Position numbers and translations under genes: made by a program. Under the pieces are notes generated by a model. The model worked only from the letters and a program-made list of their open reading frames with translations. It had not been told where the DNA came from and did no database searches. Positions 5,107 through 23,542 of a DNA stretch of 32,000 nt are shown piece after piece. Position 1 is the stretch's first letter. Every line of letters begins with the position of its first letter. Location: positions 5,562,091 to 5,594,090 of the forward strand of contig CP071065.1 in NCBI GenBank assembly GCA_017164015.1, read 5' to 3'. Source of the DNA: Nostoc sp. UHCC 0702 (lineage in GTDB: Bacteria; Cyanobacteriota; Cyanobacteriia; Cyanobacteriales; Nostocaceae).

Positions 5107-5114
5107 GGATCAAT

Positions 5115-8100: not shown

Positions 8101-8390
8101 CGCGATCGCAACTCGAAGAGTTACTTGCAGAAATTTGGGCTAAAGTCTTGGGAAAACAGCAAGTAGGCGTCCACGATAATTTCTTTGAATTGGGCGGTCA
8201 TTCTCTACTGGCGACTCAGCTAACTTCCCGCATACGTGACACCTTCCAAATAGATTTGCCTGTAGGCAATTTGTTTGAAGCGCCAACTGTTGAACAACTT
8301 GCTGAGTATATTGACACAATGTCTTGGGTAGCAAAAGGTGTGGATAAGCCTGAAAGTAGGGGAACTCAGCGAGAAGAAGTGGAATTTTGA
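5115..8390 (+). CDS. Non-ribosomal peptide synthetase, module C-A-T (predicted Ile/Val activating)
   Basis: 1091-aa ORF starting 8 nt after the previous stop (TAAGGATCAATATG, AAGGA Shine-Dalgarno). C domain has a variant active site HHIICDDWS. A-domain motifs: LAYIIYTSGSTGKPKGV, VYGPTENT, GEIYIGGEGLAREY, YKTGDLARYRPDGNIEFFGRIDNQVKIRGFRIEL. PCP: FFELGGHSLL. Acidic C-terminal tail ends REEVEF. Stachelhaus code DAFFLGVTFK, recalled as an Ile/Val code. Confidence 0.95.
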   Translation: MSSEEVFVFPVSFAQQRLWFLDQLIPNNTIYNVPTVIRLTGSLNLTALEQTFNEIVRRHETLRTTFIVLDGQPLQAITPSLTVPIAVLDLQELPAEQQEIQAKCIVTADIESPFDLSSGPLLRVILLVLSQTEHILLLNMHHIICDDWSIGVLIRELGTLYAAFTQNQPSSLVELPLQYADFAHWQREWLQKEVLQTQLTYWREQLNGISILHLPTDKPRPAIQSYQGGTQFLELPKKLIDALEKLSQQAGVTLFMTLLAAFQTLLYRYTNQEDIAIGSPIANRNHSEIEGIIGFFANSLVLRSNLSGNPTFRELLGRVREVTLGAYSHQDLPFEKLVEQLQPERNLSHHTLFQVVFGFQNAPMSALELPGLVPSLMNIDLKKTRFDLELHLWKCSEDFRSLWGRNWQYSEGLRGIIVYNTDLFEQATISRMVEHFKTLLSGIVANPEQKIANLPLLSEVERHQVLVEWNNTQADYPQNKCIHQLFEEKVQQYPDAIAVDFNNHQLTYQELNTCSNKLAQYLQKNGVCSEISVGICISQSIEMIIGLLAIIKAGGVYVPLDFSYPQERLSFILEDAQIAVLLTQENLLKHFAGFSKPIICIDKDWEIISQEKEGNPQSNLNSDNLAYIIYTSGSTGKPKGVAVPHKAVNRLVCNTNYIKLSPSDKIAQASNASFDAATFEIWGALLNGAQLVGISKDVTLSPHKLALQLREKGINVLFLTTALFQQVVRDVPQAFATLKYFLFGGETVDIKSIKKIFKHGASNHLIHVYGPTENTTFSSYHYVQELPESATSVPIGRPIKNTQLYILDTHLQPVPIGVIGEIYIGGEGLAREYLNCTELTAKHFIPHPFNNNPKTRLYKTGDLARYRPDGNIEFFGRIDNQVKIRGFRIELSEIEAVLSQHPVVKETVVIAAEDVPHDKYLVAYIIHNQDQILTREAQSFASLLRQFLKEKLPEYMVPRAYVLLESLPLTPNGKVDRRALPMPDTITFSNQDYVAPRSQLEELLAEIWAKVLGKQQVGVHDNFFELGGHSLLATQLTSRIRDTFQIDLPVGNLFEAPTVEQLAEYIDTMSWVAKGVDKPESRGTQREEVEF

Positions 8391-8580
8391 ACTGGGGGCT
8401 GGGAGGACTATAGTTATAACCATCCAACTTTCACTCCCAAGAATGATTTATACAGTTTTGTAAGTGTGATATAAATGCCACGTTAGTTAATAAACAGTGT
8501 AGAGTGGCAAAAACAACTATAAAGTTAATAAGCTTATTAAATAAGCATTATTCCTTCTACCTTCTAATAAGTAACAACAG

Positions 8581-11500
8581 TTGCGAAGGGGTGTAATTTT
8601 GAATACAGTTGAGTTTTTATCTTATCTTCGCAGCTTAGATATTCAAGTTTTTATTGATGGTGAAAAGTTCCGCTGTAACGCCCCTGAAGGAATTCTGACA
8701 GCAGAACTACGTGCAGAAATTCAAAAGCGTAAACCAGAAATTATTCAATTTCTACAACCATCTAATCGTACTAATAACCACAGCTTTAAACCTCTCGTAC
8801 CTATTTCCCGGTCAGAAAATCTTCCCCTCTCCTTTGCTCAACAAAGGCTGTGGTTTCTTAACCAATTAATTCCTAATAATCCTTTCTATAACATTTCACT
8901 AGCACTAAAATTAACAGGTTCCCTCAATCAAGCTGCCCTAGAGCAAACTTTTAACGAAATTGTGCGACGACATGAAGCTTTACGCACCACTTTTGTCATG
9001 CAGTCAGGGCAACCAGTTCAGATAATTAATCCTACGCTGACAATACCATTACCAATAATAGATTTAGGACAACTGCCACAAGCCGAACGAGAAATAGAAG
9101 CACGACGCCTCACTATCCAAGAAGCTCAACGTGCTTTTAATTTATCAACTGATTCGTTACTGCAAGTAAAATTGCTGCGGTTGGATGAAACACAATACAT
9201 CCTGCTGCTGACTATGCACCACATAGTCTCCGATGGTTGGTCTATTGGAGTGCTGATTAAAGAGATAGCAGCACTCTACACAGCCTTTGCCAACAATCAG
9301 CCTTCTCCTCTAGCGAAACTTACAATCCAATATGCAGACTTTGCATACTGGCAACGCCAATGGTTGCAAGGGGAAGTATTAAAAAACCAACTGAGTTATT
9401 GGCAGAAGCAATTAAACGGCATTTCTATGCTAAATCTGCCAACTGACAGACCAAGATTAGCTGTTCAAACTTACCAAGGTGCAAGGCAACCTCTGCAATT
9501 ATCAAAAAGTTTGAGCAAAGCACTTTTAACTCTCGGACAGCAAGCAGGGGTAACTTTGTTTATAACCCTACTAGCAGCATTCCAAGTTTTACTTTACCGC
9601 TATACACAACAAGAAGATATTGCTATTGGTTCACCTATTGCCAATCGCAACCGTAGCGAAATTGAAGGATTAATTGGTTTTTTTGTCAATAGCTTAGTAC
9701 TGCGTACTGACCTCTCAGGAAATCCAACTTTTCGGGAATTATTGAGTCGAGTTAAACAGGTAGCTTTAGGCGCTTATGCTCATCAAGATTTGCCTTTTGA
9801 AAAGCTGGTAGAAGAACTACATCCAGAGCGGAATTTAAATCAAAATCCGCTATTTCAAGTTGTTTTTGCGCTACAAAATGCGCCGATGTCTGCGTTAGAG
9901 TTACCTCGTTTAACTTTAAGTCCGCTACCATTAGATACGGAAACAACACGCTTTGATTTGGAGTTTCACCTGTGGGAGCCAAATACTCAAAATGGTTTAT
10001 GGGTAGATAGCTCAGAAGGAATTAGTGGTTTTGTAATTTACAGTACTGATTTATTTGATCAGGCTACTATCACCAGGATGTTAGGACACTTCCAAACATT
10101 ACTAGAAGGTATAGTTGCAAATCCAGAACAACGAATTGCACATTTACCACTTTTAAGCGAATCTGAGTTAGATCAGTTGTTGGTTCAATGGAATAATACG
10201 CAAATAGATTATCCTCAAGATAAGTGTATCCATCAGTTATTTGAGAGTGTTGCACAGCAAAATACTGATACCATAGCTTTGGTATTTGGTGAACAACAAC
10301 TCAGCTACAAAGAGTTAAATAAACGCAGTAACCAACTTGCACATTATCTCAAAAAATTAGGAGTTAAAGCTGAAGTTTTAGTTGGACTTTGTGTAGAACG
10401 CTCTTTTGAAATGGTAATCGGAATGTTGGGCATCTTGAAAGCAGGCGGAGCTTATGTGCCTCTAGACCCAAGCTATCCATCTGAACGTTTGCACTTGATG
10501 CTGAAAGATGCTCAAGTTTCAGTTTTATTAACTCACGAGCAATGGCTGGAACGTTTAGAAAATAATAATTCACAAGTAATCTGTTTAGATAAAGATTGGG
10601 AAATTATTGCTCAAGAGATTGAAGAAAATCCGACTAACGAAGTTACAGTAGACAACTTAGCTTATATCATTTATACCTCTGGTTCAACAGGAAAGCCTAA
10701 AGGTGTAGAAATTGAACATAGAGGATTGTTAAATTTAGTATTTTGGCATCAAAAAGCCTTTGCAGTTTCACATCTTGACCGAGTAACGCAGATTGCTGGG
10801 GTTGCGTTTGATGCTTGCGGTTGGGAAATTTGGCCTTACCTGAGTGCTGGAGCAAGCATCTATATTGTAGATGAGCAAATCAGGCAAATGCCTGACCATT
10901 TACGAGATTGGTTAATATCAAAAGCGATCACAATTTCCTTTCTACCAACACCTTTAGCAGAAAAAGTTTTATTATTAGATTTTCCGGAGAATGCAGCGTT
11001 ACGAATATTGCTCACAGGTGGTGATAAACTAAATCAATATCCTTTAGCTTCTCACTCTTTCCAAGTATTTAATAATTATGGCCCAACTGAGAACACAGTT
11101 GTGACAACTTCTGGGCATATTTCTGTTAACAATAAAGATAATTTAGCACCTGCAATTGGTCGCGCGATCGCTAACACGCAAGTCTACATATTAGATCAAT
11201 ATTTACAACCTGTGCCTATTGGTGTTTCAGGAGAATTGTACATCAGCGGTGATGGATTAGCACGAGGTTATTTCAACCGTCCTGATTTGACTGCTGAGTC
11301 CTTCATTTCTAATCCTTTTACTAATAAGTCAAAAGCACAACTTTATAAAACAGGTGATTTAGTTCGCTATCGATTAGACGGCGACATGGAATTTTTAGGT
11401 CGCCTCGACGACCAGGTAAAAATTCGTGGCTACCGCATTGAGTTGGGAGAAATTGAAGCAGTACTCAGTCAGCATCCAGCAGTGCAGCAAACTGTAGTCA

Positions 11501-13308
11501 TAAATCGTGAAGATGAACAGGAAAAACGCCTAGTAGCTTATGTAGTACCAAAAACCGAATATAACAGCGAACAGGAAAATATGCAATTAATGCAATTGCA
11601 GAATGAGCAAGTTTTGCAATGGCAGATGCTCTATAACGAAACTTATAATCAACCTGCTAATTCCGATCCAAAATTGAATTTTATCGGCTGGAATAGTAGT
11701 TACAGCAATCAGCCAATTCCAGCAGAACAGATGCGTGAGTGGGTGAATAACCAAGTCGAGCATATTTTGGCTTTACAACCCAAACGAGTGTTAGAAATTG
11801 GTTGTGGAACAGGTTTAATTCTGTTTAGGGTTGCACCTGACTGCACAAAATATTGTGGCACAGACTTTTCCTCAGTTTCACTTAACTATATTCAGCAGCA
11901 GTTACAAAACCAAGAAATGCCGCAGGTAACGCTGTATCAGCAAATGGCTACTGATTTCGAGAAAGTAGAAACAGCAGCTTTTAATGTAGTAATTATCAAC
12001 TCAGTTGTACAATATTTTCCTACTATTGATTATCTGATTCGTGTATTAGAAGGTGCTGTGCAGGCAACTGCACCGGGTGGCTTTATCTTTATAGGAGATG
12101 TGCGTAGTTTGCCACTTTTGCAAGCTTTCCATGCATCAGTGCAACTGTATCAAGCTGAACCTTCCCTTACACGGTTCGAGTTGCAGCAACGGGTAAAAAT
12201 GCAAATATTTCAAGAAACAGAGTTAGTCATTGACCCAGCTTTTTTTACTGCAATCAAGCAACACTTTCCACAAATTAATGATGTACAAATTCAACTGTTG
12301 CGGGGTAAACATCACAATGAGTTAACTCAGTTTCGTTACAATGTAATTCTTACTATTGAGGGCGAAACTGTTAACAATACTGAAGATTATCCAGTTTCAA
12401 ATTGGTCTGAAAATAATTTAACACTGTCAGCAGTGCATCAGTTATTAATTGATAATCAGCCAGAAATATTAAACATTATAAATGTACCTAATGCGCGGGT
12501 AATGTCAGCAGTTAAAATAGCAGAATTGCTATCAGATGTAGAAGGTTTTAAAACTGTAGCTGAAATACGTAAAGCTTTACAAGAACTCGAAAATTTCGGA
12601 GTAGAACCAGAAGATTTTTATGGGCTGAATGTACCTTATAGGGTTGATATTACCTGGTCACATTCAAGTATTGAAGGACATTATGATGTGGTTTTTATAC
12701 GGCAAGATAGAGTAGCTAAGAAAACTATTTTTCCACATAGCACGGCTGACTCTCGGACTTGGCAATCTTACGCCAATAATCCTCTACAAGCCAAAGCAGC
12801 ACGTAAGTTAGTGCCGCAGTTACAGACTTACATCACACAAAAACTGCCTGAGTATATGATGCCATCAGCTTTTGTAATATTGGAGTCTTTACCTCTAACA
12901 GCTAATGGTAAAGTCAATCGCCGCGCCTTAAGAGCATTGCATGATGCAATCAAACCCCAATTGACTGAAAATTACATTGCACCGAGAACTCCTATTGAAC
13001 AAGTGCTGGTGAAAATTTTTGCTGAGCTTTTGGGACTTAAACGTGTAGGAATTTATGACAATTTCTTTGAATTAGGTGGTCATTCATTACTAGCAACTCA
13101 GCTTGTCTCTAGAGTGCGCGACACCTTGCACGTGGAGTTACCTTTGCGTAGCGTATTTGAGGCATCGACAATTGCAGAATTATCTCAGGTGGTAGAAAGT
13201 TTTAAAGGGAGCAATGCTCAAAGTCAAGCCCCGATTTTAGCACCACTATCGCGTGAAAGTCGCCGCATTAAGCTATCTTCTTTAAAGGAACAGAACAAAG
13301 GTTCTTAG
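8581..13308 (+). CDS. Non-ribosomal peptide synthetase, docking-C-A(methyltransferase insert)-T (predicted N-methyl-Leu module)
   Basis: 1575-aa ORF. The start is uncertain: TTG 8581 in the ORF track, with an alternative in-frame TTG at 8599 giving MNTVEFLSYL. N-terminal TubC-type docking domain, then C (HHIVSDGWS). A domain: LAYIIYTSGSTGKPKGV, NNYGPTENT, GELYISGDGLARGY, YKTGDLVRYRLDGDMEFLGRLDDQVKIRGYRIEL. A roughly 450-aa insert with SAM motif VLEIGCGTG lies between A8 and A9 (LPEYMMP). PCP: FFELGGHSLL. Stachelhaus code DAWFLGNVVK is the canonical Leu code. Confidence 0.95.
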   Translation: MRRGVILNTVEFLSYLRSLDIQVFIDGEKFRCNAPEGILTAELRAEIQKRKPEIIQFLQPSNRTNNHSFKPLVPISRSENLPLSFAQQRLWFLNQLIPNNPFYNISLALKLTGSLNQAALEQTFNEIVRRHEALRTTFVMQSGQPVQIINPTLTIPLPIIDLGQLPQAEREIEARRLTIQEAQRAFNLSTDSLLQVKLLRLDETQYILLLTMHHIVSDGWSIGVLIKEIAALYTAFANNQPSPLAKLTIQYADFAYWQRQWLQGEVLKNQLSYWQKQLNGISMLNLPTDRPRLAVQTYQGARQPLQLSKSLSKALLTLGQQAGVTLFITLLAAFQVLLYRYTQQEDIAIGSPIANRNRSEIEGLIGFFVNSLVLRTDLSGNPTFRELLSRVKQVALGAYAHQDLPFEKLVEELHPERNLNQNPLFQVVFALQNAPMSALELPRLTLSPLPLDTETTRFDLEFHLWEPNTQNGLWVDSSEGISGFVIYSTDLFDQATITRMLGHFQTLLEGIVANPEQRIAHLPLLSESELDQLLVQWNNTQIDYPQDKCIHQLFESVAQQNTDTIALVFGEQQLSYKELNKRSNQLAHYLKKLGVKAEVLVGLCVERSFEMVIGMLGILKAGGAYVPLDPSYPSERLHLMLKDAQVSVLLTHEQWLERLENNNSQVICLDKDWEIIAQEIEENPTNEVTVDNLAYIIYTSGSTGKPKGVEIEHRGLLNLVFWHQKAFAVSHLDRVTQIAGVAFDACGWEIWPYLSAGASIYIVDEQIRQMPDHLRDWLISKAITISFLPTPLAEKVLLLDFPENAALRILLTGGDKLNQYPLASHSFQVFNNYGPTENTVVTTSGHISVNNKDNLAPAIGRAIANTQVYILDQYLQPVPIGVSGELYISGDGLARGYFNRPDLTAESFISNPFTNKSKAQLYKTGDLVRYRLDGDMEFLGRLDDQVKIRGYRIELGEIEAVLSQHPAVQQTVVINREDEQEKRLVAYVVPKTEYNSEQENMQLMQLQNEQVLQWQMLYNETYNQPANSDPKLNFIGWNSSYSNQPIPAEQMREWVNNQVEHILALQPKRVLEIGCGTGLILFRVAPDCTKYCGTDFSSVSLNYIQQQLQNQEMPQVTLYQQMATDFEKVETAAFNVVIINSVVQYFPTIDYLIRVLEGAVQATAPGGFIFIGDVRSLPLLQAFHASVQLYQAEPSLTRFELQQRVKMQIFQETELVIDPAFFTAIKQHFPQINDVQIQLLRGKHHNELTQFRYNVILTIEGETVNNTEDYPVSNWSENNLTLSAVHQLLIDNQPEILNIINVPNARVMSAVKIAELLSDVEGFKTVAEIRKALQELENFGVEPEDFYGLNVPYRVDITWSHSSIEGHYDVVFIRQDRVAKKTIFPHSTADSRTWQSYANNPLQAKAARKLVPQLQTYITQKLPEYMMPSAFVILESLPLTANGKVNRRALRALHDAIKPQLTENYIAPRTPIEQVLVKIFAELLGLKRVGIYDNFFELGGHSLLATQLVSRVRDTLHVELPLRSVFEASTIAELSQVVESFKGSNAQSQAPILAPLSRESRRIKLSSLKEQNKGS
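8599..8760 (+). other. TubC_N-type (beta-hairpin) NRPS N-terminal docking domain
   Basis: NTVEFLSYLRSLDIQVFIDGEKFRCNAPEGILTAELRAEIQKRKPEIIQFLQ matches the recalled TubC N-terminal docking pattern (..L..L...G..L...G..L....P.G.L...L...I...K.E.I..L). Confidence 0.7.
11470..12840 (+). other. SAM-dependent methyltransferase domain embedded in the A domain (between core motifs A8 and A9)
   Basis: The insert begins after KIRGYRIELGEIE (ends about 11460) and ends before LPEYMMP (about 12844). It contains FIGWNSSYSNQPIPAEQMREWV and the SAM-binding VLEIGCGTG (11788-11814), typical of NRPS N-methyltransferase domains. Confidence 0.8.
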
Positions 13309-15147: not shown

Positions 15148-16089
15148 TCAAAAACGATTAGATGCTAATTTATTCAACCATTTCGATGCTTCGTTGTACG
15201 ATTTGAACTGGCTTTCACTGGCACGAAACTCTTTTGTATGAACCATTCTTCTCCCCTGAACCCACTTCGCGCCGTGGTACTTGTGCAACAATTCGTGATA
15301 CAACACAAACTCAACTACAAATTCCGGTACATTAACATCATCAAGAGTCAAACTGATCACTACCCTATCTCTAGCTGACTCATAGTGTCCGAACTTACGG
15401 TAAGTGTTAATTCGGCTCCATGCTAGGCGTGGTTTGGCAAGACTTGCCGCGAAATATTCATGGTTAACTTTATGAAATAATTCATCTAGGTTATAAAACT
15501 TTCCTTGTGGATTTTCTGCCACTACCTCAGCAATCAAATCAAGCTCTAACACTAGATTAGTGTATTCTTCTGTACTGACAAATGACCTGATCAGTTGTGT
15601 ATTCTGTTGATTTTTGCCAAAAAGTGCAGATTCTACTAATGCTTGCAATACTACTTTTGGTGCATTTATAAATCCCTCATTAATCATGATATTGGCTGTG
15701 CTATTAGACCTTTTCCCCTGATATAGCCCAGCTAAATTAGTTATGCCAATCATTACTTGAAGTGAGTTTTGACCACGTTCATTCAGGATTTGTTTGGCAG
15801 TTGACAACACACAGCCACTAGTTCTCAGGTGGAGTTCTAAATACTGTTCATTTGTTAAAAACTTGATCCATGAGTAGATTCTACGGGATGAAGGAGTCAG
15901 ATTTGCTGGCGTTGCTTGTTGGGTAGAACATATTTTTTCAATTGTTGTTGCTGTTGTAATTAAATTTTGATTTAATTGTTGTATTTGAATTGATTCATAA
16001 TTATGTTTTGCAGCTAAATTAAAAATTTTATGCAATATCTTATTTTGTTGCACTTTGATGTTTTTTAAGCGAATACCCTCAACGTTCAT
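15148..16089 (-). CDS. DUF45/YgjP-like (M48-related) putative zinc metallohydrolase with a long N-terminal extension
   Basis: 313-aa ORF. The C-terminal region RLAWSRINTYRKFGHY...VISLTLDD...FVVEFVLYHELLHKYHG...HTKEF...WLNKL fits the recalled DUF45 pattern, including the HExxH motif (HELLH). Confidence 0.6.
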   Translation of the reverse strand: MNVEGIRLKNIKVQQNKILHKIFNLAAKHNYESIQIQQLNQNLITTATTIEKICSTQQATPANLTPSSRRIYSWIKFLTNEQYLELHLRTSGCVLSTAKQILNERGQNSLQVMIGITNLAGLYQGKRSNSTANIMINEGFINAPKVVLQALVESALFGKNQQNTQLIRSFVSTEEYTNLVLELDLIAEVVAENPQGKFYNLDELFHKVNHEYFAASLAKPRLAWSRINTYRKFGHYESARDRVVISLTLDDVNVPEFVVEFVLYHELLHKYHGAKWVQGRRMVHTKEFRASESQFKSYNEASKWLNKLASNRF

Positions 16090-16142
16090 TTGAGTTTTGT
16101 AACTATAAAGGAATAAACAAGTTCTTACATTTCAATATTACT

Positions 16143-16286
16143 AGGACTTACGCAAGTGTCATATTTTTTTCGTCTGGGCAGTACTGGGTCAAAAGTCAAT
16201 AGTCCAAAAAATCTTGCTTAAAGACTATTGACTATTGACTATTGACTGCCATCACAGTAAATCTGTGTGCCAGTTGCGTAAGTCCT
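16143..16286 (-). mobile_element. MITE copy A (TIR AGGACTTACGC), inverted relative to copies B and C
   Basis: The ends are aggacttacgcaagtgtcat ... gtgtgccagttgcgtaagtcct. The reverse complement aligns by eye with the copies at 23652 and 24553. It contains an internal (GACTATT)n heptamer tract (about 16223-16248). Confidence 0.8.
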
Positions 16287-16360
16287 GATTACTATTTGAT
16301 GTAAGATGGTATTCTTTGTATCAAAAGCCACAGTTAAGACAAAAACTAAATTTCAAGTGT

Positions 16361-16384
16361 AGGAGCAATTCATGAATTGCTCCT
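16361..16384 (-). terminator. Perfect palindromic hairpin just downstream of the 597-aa CDS stop
   Basis: AGGAGCAATTCATGAATTGCTCCT lies 15 nt beyond the stop at 16399. No clean T-run follows on the minus strand, so terminator function is tentative. Confidence 0.4.
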
Positions 16385-16398
16385 GGGTGAATTTGGTA

Positions 16399-18192
16399 TT
16401 AGTGATCTACTTCACTGGGGTGAGGCTCAAAAAATGGAATACCAAATCCTTGAGTTGCTAACTTTTTGGCGATCGCTTGCAAGTTGATCATCTCCTGACG
16501 GGCAGAGACAATATTGTTGGCATCTTCCATATCTCCTTTTTCATAAGCTGCTTGCAAGTAACCGAGAAGTCTGTGGTAGCCATCCAAGGCTTCCTTGGCA
16601 TCTGGATGATCACTAGGTGCTGGCGTAATATTTCTCAGGTATGCTGGTCTAGCCCCATTAGCTGGCGACCCATCTTGATAAACACGTAACACCGTTTCGA
16701 TTTCGCGGAACTTGCTAAAATGCTCCATACCATCGGCAATGATTCGCCCAGCTAGTTGATAGAGAGTGTCTGGATATTGGGGTTGACGAAGTGTCGCCAG
16801 TACCCGTGAATACTGACCATCTATACCACCACTGGGGGCTTCCACGGCGATAAAGTCAGCCAAGGCTTTTCTATTGAGAGGACGCAGTTGTCGGGGACGA
16901 GTATGACCGTTAGCTACAGGGATGCGACTGGCAACTTCTAAAGCCGGGCCATAAGCTTTTTTCGTCAGTCCTGCGTGGTCAAGTTCCCAAAGCAATTGAT
17001 TCACCCAACGCAGGTGACGCATTTCACTCACAGCGACCAACAGCAACTCATGACTGACGAAAATTAGGTCATTGCGGAGTGTTGGCCAGATGTTCACATC
17101 TGCCTCTTCAGGAGCAACTAAGGAGTAAAGGGCGTAAAGGTATTCTAAACAAAGAACATGTTCTAAACCAGCCAAATCGTACAACTTAGTTGCTAATACC
17201 TCTGGATTTTTGTATGGATTAGCATCATCAGGTGCTGGTGGTCGATATATCTGGGAGATTTCTTTGCCCCCAAGCACAACAGCCAACTCTTGCCAGCGTT
17301 GGCTGATTTCGTAGTGATCCATTTGGAAGGGGCGGTTTTGTTGGGGAGTCCCCAAAGCACCAGCACGACCGCCTAGGGAACGATCCGATCGCAGCCAATC
17401 AATGGGTGTATTCGCCCGGTCGGGGTCGGCTGAGGCACCAGAGGGCAGTGTCGCCTCACCGAGAGTATCTTCGCCTAAAACTATATCTGGGTGATTGGAA
17501 GCCCAGTAGAAACAGGCACAGTCACGGAAATCATGCTGCCAAGGAGAACAAAGACTCTGGGTTAACTCTCCGGGCTGATAGACTTGTCCGATAACGCCGC
17601 TTTGAGAATCAACAAAAACCCGACGCCAGCCGTTCAGTTCAAGTTCAGCGGTGGATGGAGGATTGTCTTCACCGCCTGCTTGGCGTTGCCAGAGTTTGAT
17701 TTTCACTAAACCAGGCTCTAAAGAACGCACCAAACGCCAGACTATTAGACCATCCAAAGGAACTTTTTTCCCTTCTGCATCTAGTTGAAATAGGGGTATG
17801 TTCTTGCCCCCTTGTTCCACAGCATCGAGATACCATGTACCTGTAGATAGGCTATTACCTGAGTCTCCTTGAAGTGCTGCCCGTAGTTGTGTCGCCGCCG
17901 TAATTAATTCTGGATTGCCTGCATGGAAAGCCGGGTTTAATTCAGGATCGCTCGATTCTATATTTAGTAGTAATGCACCACCACGTAAAGCATCGGGGTT
18001 AGAACTATCGCTTTCAGAAACAAACTCGAAAACTAAACCAGGAAAAAAGCGACGGTCAAGGTTGCGCTGGTCAAATTCTAACCCAGGATAGCAGTTGCCA
18101 ACGCCGCTTTCTAAGCGTGTGGTGGCTGGATTGCCCACCACTTGTCGGTCAGACTTAGCTGTGAGGTTACGGGGAAAAATTTTCTCGCTCAT
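16399..18192 (-). CDS. Fusion protein: LodA/GoxA C-terminal-like domain (N-terminal half) + ferritin-like domain (C-terminal half)
   Basis: 597-aa ORF whose ATG is 5 nt after the radical SAM stop. Residues 207-235, PGELTQSLCSPWQHDFRDCACFYWASNHP, match the recalled LodA C-terminal signature (PGDLT..M.CPWQADF..C ... YWWPPQSP). Residues about 332-597 contain LEHVLCLEYLYALYSL and VAVSEMRHLRWVNQLL, as in the Pfam Ferritin-like family PF12902. Confidence 0.8.
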   Translation of the reverse strand: MSEKIFPRNLTAKSDRQVVGNPATTRLESGVGNCYPGLEFDQRNLDRRFFPGLVFEFVSESDSSNPDALRGGALLLNIESSDPELNPAFHAGNPELITAATQLRAALQGDSGNSLSTGTWYLDAVEQGGKNIPLFQLDAEGKKVPLDGLIVWRLVRSLEPGLVKIKLWQRQAGGEDNPPSTAELELNGWRRVFVDSQSGVIGQVYQPGELTQSLCSPWQHDFRDCACFYWASNHPDIVLGEDTLGEATLPSGASADPDRANTPIDWLRSDRSLGGRAGALGTPQQNRPFQMDHYEISQRWQELAVVLGGKEISQIYRPPAPDDANPYKNPEVLATKLYDLAGLEHVLCLEYLYALYSLVAPEEADVNIWPTLRNDLIFVSHELLLVAVSEMRHLRWVNQLLWELDHAGLTKKAYGPALEVASRIPVANGHTRPRQLRPLNRKALADFIAVEAPSGGIDGQYSRVLATLRQPQYPDTLYQLAGRIIADGMEHFSKFREIETVLRVYQDGSPANGARPAYLRNITPAPSDHPDAKEALDGYHRLLGYLQAAYEKGDMEDANNIVSARQEMINLQAIAKKLATQGFGIPFFEPHPSEVDH

Positions 18193-18197
18193 AATAA

Positions 18198-19520
18198 TTA
18201 TGTGTGTGGGCGATCAAAAATATCAGGACGTTCAGACAAAGCGCGATCGTAATAACGCAGGCAGTAATCCAGCCAGCCACGGATGTAATCGCAACCATCA
18301 CGCCCGGAGGCGATAACTTCAGCATGACAACCGCCACCGCATAAATAACGTGCCCAACAAGAACGGCAAGGTTCTTGGCGGTCAACTAAACGAGCTTGCA
18401 AAAACTCTTCACGCGCTGTTTGAGAAGGGCCATCAGCAAATGTTCCCAAGGCAAAACTATCTTGGTCGATAGTGCGGTGACAGGTAAAGTAATTACCTTC
18501 GGCACTCACAGATACATAACTAGCTGCGGCACCGCATGGTAAAGGGCGACAGGAACCACGGTGAATTTCCCGCAAAGCGATCGCTAAATTAGAAAAGCGC
18601 AAGTCTTCACCTGTCAGCAGGCATTGCCATTCAGCTTCAGCCACCCGGATCATTTCTTGCAGGAAAATTGCCCAGTCTTCTGAGGTCAAAGCTAGTTTCG
18701 GGTCAGGGGATGTTCGCAGAGGACTCACGCCAATTTCTTTAAACCCGATGGCACTCAGGGCTGCAACTCGTTCCAAAACTCGCAGGTCGGTGCGAGTCAC
18801 TGTACAACGTGCTGCAATCCTCGCTTGTCCCGGATCTGCCAGTAAGGGGCGCAGATGCTCCACAACTGTAGCAAAGCTGCCTGTACCACGGTTATTAGTT
18901 CTGTGTAAATCATGCACAGTCGCGCCACCATCAATGCTCACAGACACAGCAAAAGCATTGTCCCGCAACAGTTGTATATCAGACTCAGTAATTAAAGTCC
19001 CATTGGTGGTGATAGAAAAACCTACCGAGATGCCACGACGAGCCGCCAGTTCATTGGCATATTCCACACTCCGGTAGAGTGTGGCTCGATTCAGAAATGG
19101 CTCACCCCCAATAAAACCGATGGTGACTCGTCGTTTCTGTGCCTGTTCAATCAGTCGCTTGATGGTCGTCAAAGCGACTTCTACAGACATTAAACGTTGC
19201 CGTCCTCCAAATCGGCCTTCATCAGCATAACAATAGCTACATGTCAAGTTGCAGGATTGGGCTAAATTCAGAGAGATGGCAGATGGTTCTTGGTCGGCGT
19301 GCCAAGCACTAACGGCTGGTTCAGCAGAAGATACACTAGCACGTAATTCGGCGATCGCTTCTGGCTGGTTATCTGCTAATGCTGCAAAGAAATCTGGGCT
19401 AACTGCAAACAGTTGGGAGTTGCCCATCAAAAATACCAATGGTGTTTCACCTGGTAGCAAGTGAAACCAAGGCTGGGGAATCTCAACAACCGCCACAGAG
19501 TTGGCAAAACTAGATTGCAT
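18198..19520 (-). CDS. Radical SAM / SPASM-domain maturase (anSME / QhpD-like)
   Basis: 440-aa ORF whose ATG is 3 nt after the upstream TAG, with AGGAG 8 nt upstream. Radical SAM motif CNLTCSYC at 19230-19253. GGEPF motif present. SPASM motifs: CGAAASYVSVSAEGNYFTC and CRSCWARYLCGGGC (CX2CX5CX3C, 18327-18368), plus downstream Cys residues. Confidence 0.9.
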   Translation of the reverse strand: MQSSFANSVAVVEIPQPWFHLLPGETPLVFLMGNSQLFAVSPDFFAALADNQPEAIAELRASVSSAEPAVSAWHADQEPSAISLNLAQSCNLTCSYCYADEGRFGGRQRLMSVEVALTTIKRLIEQAQKRRVTIGFIGGEPFLNRATLYRSVEYANELAARRGISVGFSITTNGTLITESDIQLLRDNAFAVSVSIDGGATVHDLHRTNNRGTGSFATVVEHLRPLLADPGQARIAARCTVTRTDLRVLERVAALSAIGFKEIGVSPLRTSPDPKLALTSEDWAIFLQEMIRVAEAEWQCLLTGEDLRFSNLAIALREIHRGSCRPLPCGAAASYVSVSAEGNYFTCHRTIDQDSFALGTFADGPSQTAREEFLQARLVDRQEPCRSCWARYLCGGGCHAEVIASGRDGCDYIRGWLDYCLRYYDRALSERPDIFDRPHT

Positions 19521-19523
19521 ATA

Positions 19524-21197
19524 CTACTCCTGTGACTCCAAACGACGCGCCACTACTCTGGCTACATGCTGGCGAACTGGTGTGGCCACTGTAGGCGGTG
19601 GGGCAACTTGACCGGGAATCAAAGTTAATTCTGCTGGGGCTTGGGCACGCAGCTTGTCCACAAACCCTAGAATCTGATTATACTGCCGCCTTGTCAGAGA
19701 TAACGCTGTGGCATCCGAGTCACGCATGTAAGGAGGCATCCGCATATCATGGACGCGATCGCGTTGGATACGGGCATCTCGATGACGAGCATCAGATGTT
19801 TCCGGCGGCTGTTCACTGAGTTCTGCCACCACACCGTAGGGAGGACGTAACAAATACTCGACTCGCACGCCGAAGGTACGTAGAAAATCTGTGAGGTTTT
19901 CCACATCTGTGAGTGAAGCATGAACGCTGGCGGCGACGGCGGAGTAAGGTAAGCGATCGCGGGCTACAGATTGACTAATCAAATCTGGTACCTTATCTGC
20001 ATAAGGCTTGTCTTCGGATGTCATACTACCAAAATCAGTGCGGGGTGGCGCTTCTGCAACAGGTTCGGGTATGCCACCACGGGCATTCTCATTCAATGCT
20101 CGCGATCGGTTAGCATCCAAATTGAGTAAACTTAATGTCTCGAACACGCGTTGGAAGAGATCGGCAATTTCTGAGGTGGTCAGCTGTTCATCATCCAACG
20201 CCGGAACGGGTAAGTCACGGTCTGAGAGTTCGTCAGCCAAGGACAAGAAAGGACGGCGGTCGGGAGAAAAGTCTGGCGGCCCGGAGAAAAATCGAGCTAT
20301 TGCCCTAAATCGTTCTCCACCAACTACTACAAAAGCTGTAATGATGCCATCACAAGTATCATCCACAACACCCCAAGAGCGATCGCTTGCTACTGGAATC
20401 TCTGCACTCGCTCCATCGTAGGTATCATAAGGATCAGGATTGTTAAAACGTCTGAAATCGGCATCGTAATTTGACCATGCTGAATTAGGATTTAGGATGC
20501 GATTTTGTTCTAGAACGATTTCATGTATGCGTCTAGTGCCTGGTGCGGGTGCAGCAGTAGCCGTTGGTGGCCCATACACATGTCCGTAAGCAGGTGTATA
20601 CCGCAGACGGAGCGTACCCAAGTTTACCCCCATTTCCTCAGCATCCACTGGGCGAATCACTTGAATGTCCCCTAGAGGTATGGGTTTATCGGGGAAAACT
20701 AGAGGTTCCGAATTCACGCCGCGTGGACTTGTCGCCAGCAGTGGGTAGCGTTGATAATCGTTAGCACGAACTTCTATCCTGGCACTAAAACCACAGGTCG
20801 GGTCGCCAGTGCGTCGTGCTGCTTTTAAATTCGCTGCTTCCACCACATAGGAAACAGCATCAAGGGGTGCTTTTAATTCTTGCAGAAGTTTACTTGTTAA
20901 GGGAACTTCTTCTATTGAGCTATCGGCATGTTGTACTCGCGCCCACAACTCAAAAAATGGCGCCACTGGTCGAAAAAGGTTTTGATCTTTAAAGTGAATA
21001 ATACTAGGTAGATAAGGGCGTATTGAACCATCGGGTTGGATTTCAAAGCTAGTTGCTGGCTCAATAATTGTCTTAGCTGCACCATGTAGGGTTGGGTCTT
21101 CCTGCCAGGTGAAACTCTCTAGGGGGATACTGCTGCCACCTAGGCGGGCAATAGCCATCGGTGGATAGAAAAAGATTTCAAGCAATCGAGGCTGCAC
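19524..21197 (-). CDS. LodA/GoxA N-terminal-like protein (first part of a split LodA-like protein)
   Basis: 557-aa ORF with a GTG start preceded by GGAGG (21203-21207, 5-nt spacing). YPPMAIARLGGS (21132-21164) resembles LodA HPSIGVARLGN. VVDDTCDGIITAFVVVGG...FFSGPPDFSPD (20259-20363) resembles LodA DDISDG...VVGSPDFAPE. MPPYMRDSDATALSLTRRQY resembles LodA LPLMP...L..TQ. The LodA sequence is recalled from memory. Confidence 0.8.
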   Translation of the reverse strand: MQPRLLEIFFYPPMAIARLGGSSIPLESFTWQEDPTLHGAAKTIIEPATSFEIQPDGSIRPYLPSIIHFKDQNLFRPVAPFFELWARVQHADSSIEEVPLTSKLLQELKAPLDAVSYVVEAANLKAARRTGDPTCGFSARIEVRANDYQRYPLLATSPRGVNSEPLVFPDKPIPLGDIQVIRPVDAEEMGVNLGTLRLRYTPAYGHVYGPPTATAAPAPGTRRIHEIVLEQNRILNPNSAWSNYDADFRRFNNPDPYDTYDGASAEIPVASDRSWGVVDDTCDGIITAFVVVGGERFRAIARFFSGPPDFSPDRRPFLSLADELSDRDLPVPALDDEQLTTSEIADLFQRVFETLSLLNLDANRSRALNENARGGIPEPVAEAPPRTDFGSMTSEDKPYADKVPDLISQSVARDRLPYSAVAASVHASLTDVENLTDFLRTFGVRVEYLLRPPYGVVAELSEQPPETSDARHRDARIQRDRVHDMRMPPYMRDSDATALSLTRRQYNQILGFVDKLRAQAPAELTLIPGQVAPPPTVATPVRQHVARVVARRLESQE

Positions 21198-21305
21198 ACA
21201 AACCTCCGATAATAAATACTTGGATACAACCGAGGCTAGCGTACATTTTCTATATTTAATTCAATACTTCATATAAATTGTGTTAAGTATTTTTCCAGTG
21301 TTAAG
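21198..21305. promoter_or_regulatory. Divergent promoter region between the LodA-like operon and the flavoprotein gene
   Basis: 108-nt AT-rich spacer between two divergently oriented start codons. Individual -10/-35 elements were not resolved. Confidence 0.4.
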
Positions 21306-22625
21306 TTGCAACTTGTGAATAGTAGTAATTGGCAAAATAATGTAGCGATCGCTGGGGTAGGATTGGCAGCTGCGGCCGTGGCCATGCGGTTGCTTAGTTG
21401 CGGCTTTCGTCCAGTGCTGCTGAGTCGTGGACTGCCCCACATCAAAGGCGTTGAGGCAATTCCTGAGTCAGCCTTGCGGCTATTTGATGCCCTTGATTTG
21501 ACGCCAGCTTTGCAAATGGCAGGCGGTTTCTGGGTGGAGGGATTTGAAAACGCTTGGCAAGGTAACGAATCTGTAATTAGACCAGGAAGGTATATACATG
21601 TTGAGCGATCGCTCTTAGCCCAAGCTGCGATCGCTATGGTGATGCAGCAAGGTGCAGCTATGGTATCTAGTAATACCATTGCCCCACTGGTTGTAGAAAA
21701 AGCATCAGTGCGTGTGATCATAGATGGTGTAGAACAACGATTTGCCGCAGCGATTGATGCCACTGGACGTTCAGCCCTCTGGTCACGACCTATCGAACGG
21801 CATACTAGGGAGATGGCGCAGATATTTAGTACTTTTGGTGATGAAAGTTTACTCCGTGGACGCATAGCTCAATTTTCGGGCGGTTGGGCTTATCATCTTG
21901 GTTTGCCGGATACCATGACAGTTGGTGTTGTCAGTCCGCACCATACTAGTTATGAGCAAGTTCAAGAGCTAATTAGAGAAAATTTGTGTCTTCCTGCTAA
22001 GCAATTACACGTAGTAGGGCGACGACCAGTTTCTCCACAGTGGGCAGAAGCACCTATTCAAGACCGCAGGCTGGCTGTGGGAGATGCAGCACTAGCATAC
22101 AGCCCGATCGCTGGACAGGGAATCCGTTTTGCTCTATCGAGTGCTTTAGCTGCTGCTGCTGTGGTTCGCACCTGGCGAGATTCACCAGCAGATGCAGATT
22201 ACGCGACGCAGTATTACCACGAACTGGTAAACGCAGAAAAGTTGCGACATCTATCTAATATCAATTCGTTATCTAGCAATCAGGCCCTACCTACCAACCC
22301 AGCACAACCATCTTTTAATAATGCTGCCCTGCCATCTAGAGTTTATTACACTGGACAAACCAAGATGACAGGACTTTACATCAACGGATTGATCAAATGC
22401 ACAGAAGCGATCGCTTTACCTGATGGTAACATAGTGCGCTGGCTGGGTAACTTTGACCTATTGACCATGCGAGACTATTGCACCAACCCACTTGCGACTA
22501 CCAGTTTAATCGAGCAATTGCATCGGCAGCAATTAGCTGAAGCACAAGCCCTATACTTAATTCGCTGGTGTTTAGAACACAACATTATCTCAACCGCAGA
22601 TATAAAAGGGAATTGGGACAACTAA
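21306..22625 (+). CDS. FAD-dependent monooxygenase, LodB/GoxB/QhpG-like, with an extra C-terminal domain
   Basis: 439-aa ORF with a TTG start in the track (alternative GTG at 21315). Dinucleotide-binding VAIAGVGLAAAA (GxGxxA). DATGRSA motif. GD motif LAVGDAALAYSPIAGQGIRFAL. A low-complexity linker (SSNQALPTNPAQPSFNNAALPS) is followed by a domain of about 95 aa. Confidence 0.8.
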   Translation: MQLVNSSNWQNNVAIAGVGLAAAAVAMRLLSCGFRPVLLSRGLPHIKGVEAIPESALRLFDALDLTPALQMAGGFWVEGFENAWQGNESVIRPGRYIHVERSLLAQAAIAMVMQQGAAMVSSNTIAPLVVEKASVRVIIDGVEQRFAAAIDATGRSALWSRPIERHTREMAQIFSTFGDESLLRGRIAQFSGGWAYHLGLPDTMTVGVVSPHHTSYEQVQELIRENLCLPAKQLHVVGRRPVSPQWAEAPIQDRRLAVGDAALAYSPIAGQGIRFALSSALAAAAVVRTWRDSPADADYATQYYHELVNAEKLRHLSNINSLSSNQALPTNPAQPSFNNAALPSRVYYTGQTKMTGLYINGLIKCTEAIALPDGNIVRWLGNFDLLTMRDYCTNPLATTSLIEQLHRQQLAEAQALYLIRWCLEHNIISTADIKGNWDN

Positions 22626-22741
22626 CAACTGACAACTGACAACTAACAACTGACAACTGACAACTAACAACTGACAACTGACAACTGACAACTAACAACT
22701 GACAACTGACAACTGACAACTGACAACTGACAACTGACAAC
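22617..22741. repeat. Heptanucleotide tandem array ((G/A)ACAACT, about 17.5 copies, STRR-like)
   Basis: Units gacaact/aacaact run without interruption from the last codons of CDS 21306..22625 to the nucleotide before the stop of the convergent CDS 22742..23542. Confidence 0.95.
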
Positions 22742-23542
22742 CTACAATTCCATCACACTATCCAGACCCCGTTTCAATCCTACAAAAGAACTCACTTGGC
22801 GAATAGCTAATAAAGTTCCTTTTACATAAGGTTCTGCACTACTTCCCGCTTCATGTCGAATTATCAGCTTTTCCTCCCCTAGACCAAAAATTGCTTCCAC
22901 CGCTAAAGTATAACCAGGTAAACGCAACGAATGGACTTGCGTCCCATTGAGTGTTGCACCTCTACTTTCTTTTGCACCTTGAGTGTTTTCTATGGGATTG
23001 TATGGGATTGGCTGTTTAACTCGCCCTAATCGAGAAGCAAGTTCCCTGGCTGTCCCACTGGGAGCATCCACTTTCTTTTCAGAAGCGTAATCTACAATTT
23101 CCCAAATGCTCGTGTACTTGGCTGCTAATTCGGCAAAACGTTGCAGAAGCACTGCTGTAATTGCAAAGTTGCCAGCTGCTAAAACACCTACTTGGCGCTT
23201 AATTGCCTGTTCATTGATTTCTACAAAGTCTTCATCTGTAAGTCCAGAAGTACCAATGACTACATGGATACCGTTTTCGATAGCTTCTAGGACGTTGCTT
23301 TTAACTACATTTGGTTTAGTGTAGTCAACTAAAACATCACACTTTTTAATTAAAGCTTCTTTGACAGAAGCACTGATGATCACATCTGATGATGTCTCCA
23401 CAATTACATCGCCCAATCTACTGCCAGCATGAGTTCTGGAGATTGCTCCCACAAGATTCAAGTCTTGTTCAGTGTCAATCGCTTTGACTAAGGAACGCCC
23501 TACCCATCCTGTCGCACCAGCTAAACAAACATCTATTGCCAT
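22742..23542 (-). CDS. dapB: 4-hydroxy-tetrahydrodipicolinate reductase (DapB) family protein
   Basis: 266-aa ORF. N-terminal GATGWVGR nucleotide-binding motif. EKKVDAPSGTA and IIRHEAGS match the recalled DapB signatures (H..K.DAPSGTA; ..TH.A). It may be a paralogue rather than the housekeeping copy. Confidence 0.7.
   Translation of the reverse strand: MAIDVCLAGATGWVGRSLVKAIDTEQDLNLVGAISRTHAGSRLGDVIVETSSDVIISASVKEALIKKCDVLVDYTKPNVVKSNVLEAIENGIHVVIGTSGLTDEDFVEINEQAIKRQVGVLAAGNFAITAVLLQRFAELAAKYTSIWEIVDYASEKKVDAPSGTARELASRLGRVKQPIPYNPIENTQGAKESRGATLNGTQVHSLRLPGYTLAVEAIFGLGEEKLIIRHEAGSSAEPYVKGTLLAIRQVSSFVGLKRGLDSVMEL

Follow-up and report, generated by a model that had tools for sequence, protein, structure and literature searches.

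A PF12902 ferritin-like domain fused behind a LodA-like Cys/Trp motif in a widespread four-gene cassette of Nostoc sp. UHCC 0702

The four-gene cassette and its LodA-like parts

The window analysed here, a stretch of 32,000 nucleotides from Nostoc sp. UHCC 0702, carries a cassette of four genes, A, B, C and F. Gene C (P0001, 597 aa; positions 16399-18192, minus strand) encodes a protein with a LodA-like Cys/Trp motif in its N-terminal region and a ferritin-like module at its C-terminus. With rising coordinates it is followed by gene B (P0002, 440 aa; 18198-19520, minus strand) for a radical SAM/SPASM enzyme (TIGR03906, PF04055) closest to QhpD, by gene A (P0003, 557 aa; 19524-21197, minus strand) for a counterpart of the N-terminal part of LodA/GoxA, and by the divergently transcribed gene F (439 aa; 21306-22625, plus strand) for a QhpG-like flavin monooxygenase. 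The gene B product matched the QhpD model TIGR03906 with E 4e-78 and 263 bits, below the cut-off of 453, and the gene F product matched the QhpG model NF049967 with E 1e-37 and 130 bits, below the cut-off of 240, together with the peptidyl-Trp dihydroxylase 7CTQ and, more weakly, GoxB and LodB. Since both scores fall under the equivalog cut-offs, the two proteins are relatives of QhpD and QhpG and not equivalogs.

The assignment of gene A comes from the family comparison and from the fold of a fused homologue, the protein itself having no match in Pfam. In hhalign its family aligned with canonical LodA-like proteins at 97.3% (E 2e-11, 266 columns), and residues 18-504 of a fused A+C homologue matched LodA (3WEU) at Z 13.7 over 208 residues and GoxA at Z 12.8, with a Foldseek E of 1e-7 and probability 1.0 for the LodA/GoxA fold. 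Natural A+C fusions are P0126, P0136 and P0158; apparent split forms among database proteins are P0189 and P0198. The gene C protein gave a match to PF18417 (LodA_C) with E 8e-5 and 22.8 bits against a cut-off of 25, and lies below the curated LodA/GoxA cut-offs (NF038172, 11.9 against 600; NF038173, 12.8 against 750). Its Cys/Trp motif (residues 206-242; 17467-17577, minus strand), in which C215, W218, D221, C225, C227, W230 and D236 are invariant, aligned with canonical LodA-like proteins in hhalign at 80.9% (E 1.3e-5) over 37 columns that include a common P-W-Q-x-D. In LodA the cofactor residues are W581 and C516. The loop bearing the motif has a pLDDT below 50 in both models, and lies 110-130 residues upstream of the ferritin-like bundle on the same chain.

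Of 80 genomic loci, which span at least six phyla, 76-77 have genes A, B and C together, 77 have gene B and 71 have gene F, and a second clade has the same A-B-C order in 80 metagenomic loci. That a second clade might hold the bundle and lack the radical SAM enzyme, which would have made the bundle a candidate maturase, was rejected, as this order is unchanged there. The hosts are cyanobacteria, Acidobacteriota, Alpha- and Betaproteobacteria, Actinomycetota, Myxococcota and Planctomycetota from soil, aquatic and symbiotic settings. The bundle is thus a fixed module of a cassette made up of a LodA-like N-part, a QhpD-like radical SAM enzyme, the gene C protein and a QhpG-like flavoprotein, and this widespread cassette appears to build a tryptophan-quinone enzyme. 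A literature search found no publication on it.

The other neighbours in the window, namely NRPS genes, DUF3122, an HExxH protein (15148-16089), a dapB-like gene and MOSC, are not kept beside the cassette across loci, and no cytochrome c, protease or exporter gene was seen among the window ORFs scanned, a scan that covered little of 24-32 kb. A FAD/BBE-type oxidase adjoins the cassette in 33 loci. By eye, neither of the two large proteins starts with an obvious hydrophobic signal peptide.

Compared with LodA/GoxA, gene A and the A+C fusions match in fold and profile and a flavoprotein maturase lies nearby, as with LodB/GoxB, whereas LodA/GoxA are single chains without a ferritin-like bundle and the cassette splits the scaffold over two genes and adds a radical SAM enzyme. 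In its maturases the cassette is closest to the quinohemoprotein amine dehydrogenase system (QhpC, QhpD, QhpG), but it has no counterpart of the small gamma subunit of that enzyme.

The ferritin-like bundle of the gene C protein

Positions 16402-17199 correspond to residues ~332-597 of the gene C protein (codons checked), and the three motifs that the initial annotation had quoted from this part are present in the 597-aa minus-strand ORF. The resemblance to PF12902 proposed there is borne out by the HMM search against Pfam, which gave a score of 45.7 bits, where the cut-off is 22.3 (E 9.3e-12), for residues 342-455 (16828-17169, minus strand; profile positions 6-105 of 221), and a whole-genome PF12902 scan recovered the same stretch with 47.3 bits. 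The gene C family aligned with 32 stand-alone PF12902 proteins in hhalign over 225 columns (95.9% probability, E 6e-9), covering residues 328-581. The four-helix bundle predicted from sequence likewise appears in a confident AlphaFold model of the protein (mean pLDDT 84), which places the helical bundle at residues ~330-580 (16453-17205, minus strand). The pLDDT in residues 330-580 is mostly above 90, except for three blocks of 10 residues each, of which two are at 85-86 and the third at 77. The modelled helices are 330-356, 372-406, 441-451/457-468, 475-508, 530-551 and 558-580, of which 330-356, 372-406, 441-468 and 475-508 form the four-helix core.

The best solved fold match of the bundle is CC_0557 (3HL1), with VIA Z 19.7-19.9 and an rmsd of 2.8 A over 222-225 residues, and a Foldseek E of 6e-6. 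Bacterioferritins come next in the structure search with the gene C model (1NF4 at Z 13), and bacterioferritin, Dps, Mn-catalase and rubrerythrin-type structures match at Z 10-13. By sequence, neither the whole protein nor its ferritin part alone found anything useful among the PDB chains; bacterioferritins were reached only by the family profile, and 3HL1 is undetectable by sequence from the gene C side. The 1749 homologues of the gene C protein are annotated only as "ferritin-like domain-containing protein", and the closest of them, with 85% identity, is on a plasmid of Nostoc sp. UHCC 0926. The agreement of fold and profile is far beyond chance, and we regard it as virtually certain that residues ~330-590 form a genuine PF12902 ferritin-like domain. 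Stand-alone PF12902 proteins have a ~90-residue insert with an invariant QGEG which, in comparison with the three paralogues of the same genome, is missing from the gene C bundle; this, together with the Pfam coverage of only 6-105 of 221 profile positions, indicates a trimmed PF12902 variant. A 646-aa neighbour of one own-genome paralogue, considered as a possible relative of A or C, showed no relation to the A/C family.

The domain had also been taken as foreign to canonical LodA/GoxA proteins. This is correct for the chains themselves in 12 canonical LodA_C loci (11 alphaproteobacterial genomes), where also no PF12902-like ORF was found within ~8 kb by jackhmmer with four PF12902 seeds; PF12902 was absent from 8 of the 10 of those genomes checked, and the remaining 2 carry it on other contigs. 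It is not correct for every neighbourhood, as CC_0557 and fungal PF12902 genes adjoin LodA-like genes. In Caulobacter vibrioides, CC0555 (LodB-like), CC0556 (LodA-like) and CC_0557 lie side by side, and when iron is limiting the CC0556-57 operon is repressed alongside iron-containing enzymes in an iron-sparing response. PF12902 as a general neighbour of canonical lodA is rejected by the LodA_C survey and holds for Caulobacter and, according to the published account, for fungi; with most sampled canonical loci lacking a PF12902 partner, the link between LodA and PF12902 is not general. Canonical LodA-like ORFs of ~1000 aa, considered as possible ferritin fusions, were ruled out as such on inspection. 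CC_0557 is thus linked to a LodA-like/LodB-like pair, whereas the gene C bundle is fused behind the Cys/Trp cofactor motif itself.

Conserved residues of a candidate metal site

Conservation was assessed in 92 homologues (49 of clade 1 and 43 of clade 2), in which E344, E390, M391, H393, E451, Y461, G488, H491 and M568 are invariant. Helix A carries the motif L-E344-H-...-E350-Y351 (17140-17166, minus strand), in which Y351 never varies in clade 1 and reaches at least 90% conservation among the clade-2 sequences, and E350 is kept in 40 of 49 sequences (82%). The helix B motif is E390-M391-R-H393 (17014-17025, minus strand). The candidate helix-C ligand E451 (16840-16842, minus strand) stands at the end of helix 441-451, and M568, the second invariant methionine, lies in the last helix (16489-16491, minus strand). 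The helix D motif (16720-16734, minus strand) reads D487-G488-M489-E490-H491, with a variable residue 490 and a residue 487 which, in the 49-row set, is always acidic (D in 39, E in 10); in clade 2 a nearly invariant Glu directly precedes the invariant Gly equivalent to G488. The metal ligands suggested in the initial annotation are hence right for E344, E390, H393 and H491, but not for E350, with its incomplete conservation, nor for a Glu at 489, which does not exist, and the list had missed E451 and the acidic residue 487.

In the family profile, E344, E390xxH393 and H491 fall on di-iron ligands of Desulfovibrio bacterioferritin. In this alignment E344 and Y351 correspond to Glu23 and Tyr30 of 1NF4, E390-M391-R-H393 to its E-M-R-H, and H491 to His135, while G488 occupies the place of Glu132. 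By the established ligand roles in bacterioferritin, M391 thereby falls on the haem-ligating Met position of the E-M-x-H motif, and the aligned Glu and His residues fall on ferroxidase ligands. Set against the canonical E / ExxH / E / ExxH pattern, E344, E390xxH393, E451 and H491 are invariant and G488, with D/E487 before it, stands at the sixth position, so that the second ExxH becomes G488-x-x-H491 with its carboxylate shifted by one residue. The same E, Y, E-M-x-H, E, Y, H and M columns are found in CC_0557 and the stand-alone PF12902 proteins, where hhalign (n=32) pairs E344/Y351/E390/M391/H393/E451/Y461/H491/M568 with the invariant E33/Y40/E66/M67/H69/E127/Y156/H226/M317.

Aligned in this way, E344, E390, H393, E451, H491 and the acidic residue 487 are candidate ligands at the positions of the two-iron centre of bacterioferritin-type proteins, with Y461, Y351, M391 and M568 placed around them. 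It is likely, judging from this conservation, that the gene C bundle binds metal, and the conserved site is probably a two-iron site. The four-helix bundle is shared, at Z 11-13, with bacterioferritin (1NF4, 1BCF) and with further di-iron proteins of ferritin-like type (Dps-like, rubrerythrin, Mn catalase, RNR R2). Bacterioferritin differs in forming a 24-mer cage, whereas the gene C bundle is part of a 597-aa enzyme and has two extra C-terminal helices, and in its sixth ligand position, which in gene C is Gly with an adjacent Asp/Glu. The bundle is probably not an iron store.

Possible roles of the bundle

Of the roles suggested for the bundle in the initial annotation, an extra redox step and metal-dependent cofactor biogenesis, both are plausible. 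In the overall reading that we put forward, and to which we give equal weight for and against, the bundle would be a redox module that binds iron, reacts with O2 and is coupled to a Cys/Trp-derived quinone cofactor. This cofactor would be formed from the invariant Cys/Trp motif, and electrons would pass between the cofactor and the bundle on the same chain. For such a redox coupling the chances seem to us even, divided about equally between turnover and maturation. In turnover, the bundle could be a built-in electron sink, in the role that the haems have in quinohemoprotein amine dehydrogenase (QHNDH) or that O2 has in LodA. The likeness to quinohemoprotein amine dehydrogenase, an iron-containing electron-accepting module on a CTQ-type cofactor, is one of idea only, as that enzyme has a di-haem alpha subunit (haem c) and the iron module of the cassette would be the ferritin-like bundle. 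In maturation, the bundle could be the oxidant for the last steps, the Cys-Trp cross-link and the oxidation of quinol to quinone, for which the cassette has no dedicated enzyme; presumed dedicated enzymes that form thioethers and dihydroxylate Trp are already in the cassette, so that the bundle would not be needed there. In favour of the redox-module reading are the identity of the domain, the conserved candidate ligands, the constant linkage within the cassette and the separate link of LodA with PF12902 in Caulobacter and fungi. Against it stand the shifted carboxylate of G488-x-x-H491, the missing QGEG insert with the partial Pfam match, the lack of a PF12902 partner at most sampled canonical LodA loci, and the haem chemistry on small molecules of the characterised PF12902-containing enzymes.

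A different role, which we find rather unlikely, is that of a small-molecule catalytic domain like that of VioB/RebD/StaD, whose substrate is the imine from an amino-acid oxidase. It would couple, oxygenate or decarboxylate the imine or aldehyde that the quinoprotein half gives off, and the fusion would then carry out two metabolic steps. Haem enzymes working on small molecules, namely VioB/RebD/StaD, are the only PF12902-containing enzymes characterised so far; their PF12902-type region lies within the chain, the paralogues of this genome showing weak matches at ~597-831 of the 1003 positions of the VioB model TIGR04492 (NCBIfam), and not at the VioB N-terminus as the initial annotation had it. 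The CPA synthases RebD/StaD/RedD contain haem and, like VioB, act directly downstream of an amino-acid oxidase, the FAD/BBE-type oxidase beside the cassette hints at further small-molecule chemistry, and the window adjoins NRPS genes. Against this, the gene C protein has no match to the VioB model at E<=1, and neither the NRPS genes nor the other window neighbours are conserved with the cassette. VioB/RebD/StaD, the iminophenyl-pyruvate dimer and chromopyrrolic acid (CPA) synthases, are moreover proteins of ~1000 aa from bisindole pathways, and no bisindole pathway genes are present at the cassette.

That the bundle is a metal-free scaffold or docking domain, which for instance holds the A protein or offers the Cys/Trp loop to the radical SAM and flavoprotein maturases, its conserved polar residues forming a buried hydrogen-bond network, is unlikely in our estimate. 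The Gly at one canonical ligand position, the absence of the QGEG insert from the gene C family and the many ferritin-like structural-genomics proteins without assigned metal are consistent with it, but packing alone is hard to credit for E/ExxH/E/H and two Met that are strictly invariant across families at ~23% identity, and the Caulobacter homologue is co-regulated with iron proteins. We give somewhat less credence to a rubrerythrin- or Mn-catalase-like remover of the H2O2 from quinol re-oxidation, which would shield an oxidase in the cytoplasm together with its radical SAM maturase, an enzyme sensitive to O2. LodA-type enzymes produce H2O2, the lack, by eye, of an obvious signal peptide on either large protein would suit such a location, and the fold matches include the Mn catalases 1JKU (Z 11.2) and 4R42 (Z 11.0), nigerythrin and symerythrin; yet these folds score no better than generic ferritins, the cassette has no rubredoxin-type domain or electron donor, and many H2O2-producing canonical LodA loci do without a PF12902 partner.

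Within the redox-module reading, the two invariant methionines allow a more specific and improbable variant, in which the bundle would be a bacterioferritin-like two-cofactor module with a di-iron site and a b-type haem between M391 and M568, wired to the tryptophylquinone of the same chain. If true, this would be a cytoplasmic "quino-ferritin" enzyme in which the electrons of the substrate travel internally to O2, giving water and not H2O2, and the haem-binding place of VioB/RebD/StaD-type enzymes would be explained.

To our knowledge, every tryptophylquinone enzyme characterised so far hands its electrons to O2, to a cupredoxin or to haem c, and we know of no characterised cofactor of this kind that is finished by anything other than a flavoprotein or the di-haem MauG. 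If true, a tryptophylquinone enzyme with a built-in iron centre of ferritin type would give a protein-derived quinone a new partner, which would either take up electrons or serve as the oxidant in maturation. PF12902, with more than 6000 database entries, gains a defined conserved site and a context that recurs, that of the LodA-type oxidases.

The ferritin-like domain of P0001

The ferritin-like domain of P0001, the 597-aa product of gene C (16399-18192, minus strand), is real, and several independent lines agree: the PF12902 match, the hhalign comparison, the AlphaFold2 helices and the 3HL1 fold all bear out what the initial annotation had proposed for 16402-17199, which corresponds to residues ~332-597. 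The three motifs it quoted all lie within P0001 when the codons are re-read. The PF12902 "Ferritin-like" HMM matches residues 342-455 (E 9.3e-12, 45.7 bits against a cut-off of 22.3), and alignment of 49 homologues (clade 1) with 32 stand-alone PF12902 proteins by hhalign gave a probability of 95.9% over residues 328-581. The AlphaFold2 model built on the 49-sequence alignment has a mean pLDDT of 84, mostly >90 over 330-580, with helices at 330-356, 372-406, 441-451/457-468, 475-508, 530-551 and 558-580. Its top structural match is 3HL1, the Caulobacter ferritin-like protein CC_0557 (Foldseek E 6e-6; VIA Z 19.7, rmsd 2.8 Å over 222 residues).

Compared with the stand-alone PF12902 proteins, the P0001 bundle lacks a ~90-residue insert carrying an invariant QGEG motif and is thus a trimmed PF12902 variant; the missing insert explains why the Pfam match is restricted to the first half of the PF12902 model. 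Among natural sequences with a solved structure, the nearest to the family profile is PDB 9VIW, a 306-aa "bacterioferritin" (E 3.8e-4), which matches both bundle halves and has the motifs L-E-H...Y-L-Y, E-M-R-H and G-D-E-x-H-H. As an experimental template it may be better than classical bacterioferritin.

A putative metal site

Residues E344, Y351, E390, M391, H393, E451, Y461, G488, H491 and M568 are invariant in clade 1 (n = 49), a set of homologues of 32-57% identity together with two close cyanobacterial rows at 72-74%. The same positions are invariant in clade 2 (n = 43), but Y351 is there only at least 90% conserved. At position 487, 39 of the 49 clade-1 sequences have Asp and the other 10 have Glu, and a Glu immediately preceding the invariant Gly is nearly invariant in clade 2. 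Among the ligands suggested in the initial annotation, E344, E390, H393 and H491 are therefore retained as invariant residues, while E350, present in just 40/49 clade-1 rows, and E489 are dropped; position 490 varies. The corrected list of candidate ligands is E344, E390, H393, E451, D/E487 and H491.

In a profile search of PDB sequences, Glu23, Tyr30 and His135 of Desulfovibrio bacterioferritin align with E344, Y351 and H491, its Glu56-Met57-Arg-His59 aligns with E390-M-R-H393, and the position of its Glu132 is G488 in P0001. The aligned Glu and His residues of bacterioferritin are di-iron ligands, and the Met of its E-M-x-H motif ligates haem. One of two invariant methionines in P0001 occupies this haem-ligating position, and a bacterioferritin-like haem site, which the two methionines would allow, is considered to be of low probability. 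The matching columns of the stand-alone PF12902 proteins are likewise invariant (E33, Y40, E66-M67-x-H69, E127, Y156, H226 and M317), and the candidate site is for this reason a family signature. In the model, 12 residues separate E344 from the end of helix A, and 18 separate the start of helix B from E390; E451 precedes the end of the broken helix C by 17 residues, and H491 comes 16 residues into helix D. These positions are compatible with the four residues being at a common level in the bundle.

The cassette and its LodA-like parts

The P0001 gene is the last in a tight minus-strand operon with gene A (19524-21197, 557 aa, no Pfam match) and gene B (18198-19520), a radical SAM/SPASM protein closest to QhpD at 263 bits, below cut-off. 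The divergent gene F (21306-22625) encodes a flavoprotein nearest the peptidyl-tryptophan dihydroxylase QhpG (NF049967, E 1e-37; PDB 7CTQ). Across 80 genomic loci from cyanobacteria, Acidobacteriota, Alpha- and Betaproteobacteria, Actinomycetota, Myxococcota and Planctomycetota, gene C is accompanied by gene A in 76 and gene B in 77, in the order A-B-C or A-C-B, the exceptions being mostly short or truncated contigs; gene F was found in 71. The A-B-C order recurs for clade 2 in 80 metagenomic loci.

In sequence-profile comparisons the gene A family matches canonical LodA-like proteins at 97.3%, and the invariant Cys/Trp motif of gene C (residues 206-242) matches the canonical "PGD-TRW--LPWQ-D" segment at 80.9%. 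In the models this loop has a pLDDT <50. The initial annotation had called the rest of P0001 a LodA C-terminal-like half, a term that is justified by nothing beyond the Cys/Trp motif and the colinearity with gene A. P0001 scores far under the threshold of the curated LodA and GoxA models. Genes A and C are naturally fused into single chains of 1100-1200 aa in the homologues P0126, P0136 and P0158. The P0126 model (pLDDT 79.8) has LodA and GoxA as first Foldseek matches (E 1e-7, probability 1.0), residues 18-504 matching LodA 3WEU with VIA Z 13.7 and residues 928-1196 matching 3HL1 with VIA Z 19.9. In the database homologues P0189 and P0198 (~345-353 aa) the initial Met lies just past the Cys/Trp motif, leaving only linker and ferritin-like bundle, which suggests that the ferritin module may also exist as a separate gene, in natural split forms of gene C.

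Several features of the neighbourhood were also observed. The cassette (16100-22750) is a G+C-rich island (0.49-0.51 against flanks of 0.36-0.42), and the closest P0001 homologue (85% identity) is on a plasmid in another Nostoc, which together suggest horizontal acquisition. In 46/80 loci (e.g. L017:3-6179 and L015:562-6006, from other genomes) the cassette adjoins a giant signalling protein with Ser/Thr kinase, AAA_16 STAND ATPase, GAF and His-kinase/receiver or SpoIIE phosphatase domains; no counterpart was found among the window ORFs scanned, a set covering little of 24-32 kb. In 33 loci of A-C-B-F type (Bradyrhizobium L023:4738-6291 and 32 others) a FAD_binding_4 and BBE-domain oxidase gene lies directly upstream of gene A; in this clade the cassette may thus have a fifth gene. 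The window also holds three large NRPS genes (964-13308; C-A-T-TE, C-A-T and TubC-dock-C-A(MT)-T), not conserved beside the cassette in other genomes, and a 313-aa protein (15148-16089, minus strand) with H-E-L-L-H near its C-terminus and a sub-threshold match to YgjP-like metallopeptidase, missing from 80/80 related loci.

PF12902 proteins elsewhere and possible roles of the bundle

Canonical LodA has no ferritin-like domain in cis, as the initial annotation had stated. No PF12902-like ORF was found within about 8 kb of 12 canonical LodA_C loci in 11 alphaproteobacterial genomes, and 8 of 10 genomes checked have no PF12902 anywhere. The bundle is foreign to LodA in cis, but not entirely in trans. 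CC0556 is a group-IB LodA-like protein with CC0555 as its LodB-like partner (supplement of PMC4417212), and the next gene after CC0556 is CC_0557, the 3HL1 protein. CC0556-57 has been treated as a unit whose expression falls when iron is limiting and when fur is mutated, as does that of iron-containing enzymes (PMC3751524), and fungal lodA-like genes adjoin PF12902 genes (PMC4417212). LodA-type oxidases have therefore gained a partner from this one ferritin-like family on at least three occasions, by fusion in the P0001 family and as a neighbouring gene in Caulobacter and in fungi.

The genome itself has further PF12902 proteins. A full-length stand-alone one of 350 aa (L087:6121-9119, about 1824100-1827100 of contig C1) has a 646-aa protein upstream and a UbiA prenyltransferase adjoining the pair; their respective alignments to the VioB model, at positions 663-831 and 504-608, are weak but colinear, and the two look like a split VioB-like pair. 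A 696-aa protein with N-terminal PF12902 (L085:5317-9202) adjoins an MbnB/TglH/ChrH-family iron enzyme and its DUF2063 partner, a RiPP-type modification pair, and a 513-aa PF12902 protein (L086:4534-9597) lies between a multicopper oxidase and an uncharacterised 340-aa protein. A multicopper oxidase is also present in a Bradyrhizobium lodA operon (PMC4417212).

Since QhpD-like and QhpG-like enzymes are present, the bundle is not needed for thioether cross-linking or Trp dihydroxylation. In QHNDH, haems take the electrons of the cofactor, and other tryptophylquinone systems use metal-dependent steps, so that we favour the bundle being an O2-reactive iron module which would exchange electrons with the quinone cofactor. 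Examples of metal-dependent steps are the first hydroxylation in LodA, which depends on Cu, and the use of the di-haem MauG for TTQ (PMC7876137). The iron module may act as an electron sink during turnover or, alternatively, as the oxidant for the last maturation steps, to which no enzyme is assigned. The bundle could instead be a small-molecule catalytic domain of the VioB kind, or a peroxide scavenger like rubrerythrin or Mn-catalase, structures of which type match P0001, as do bacterioferritin and Dps, at Z 10-13, well below 3HL1; it could also be a metal-free scaffold.

Overall, our data show that the PF12902 bundle has a conserved site of carboxylate, His, Met and Tyr residues and that its linkage to a LodA-like scaffold, to a Cys/Trp motif and to maturases of the QHNDH type is obligatory. 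Full-text literature searches found no published description of the cassette or of the role of its ferritin-like domain, and the database name of P0001 is merely "ferritin-like domain-containing protein"; what is new here is a conserved enzyme context for a PF12902 domain.
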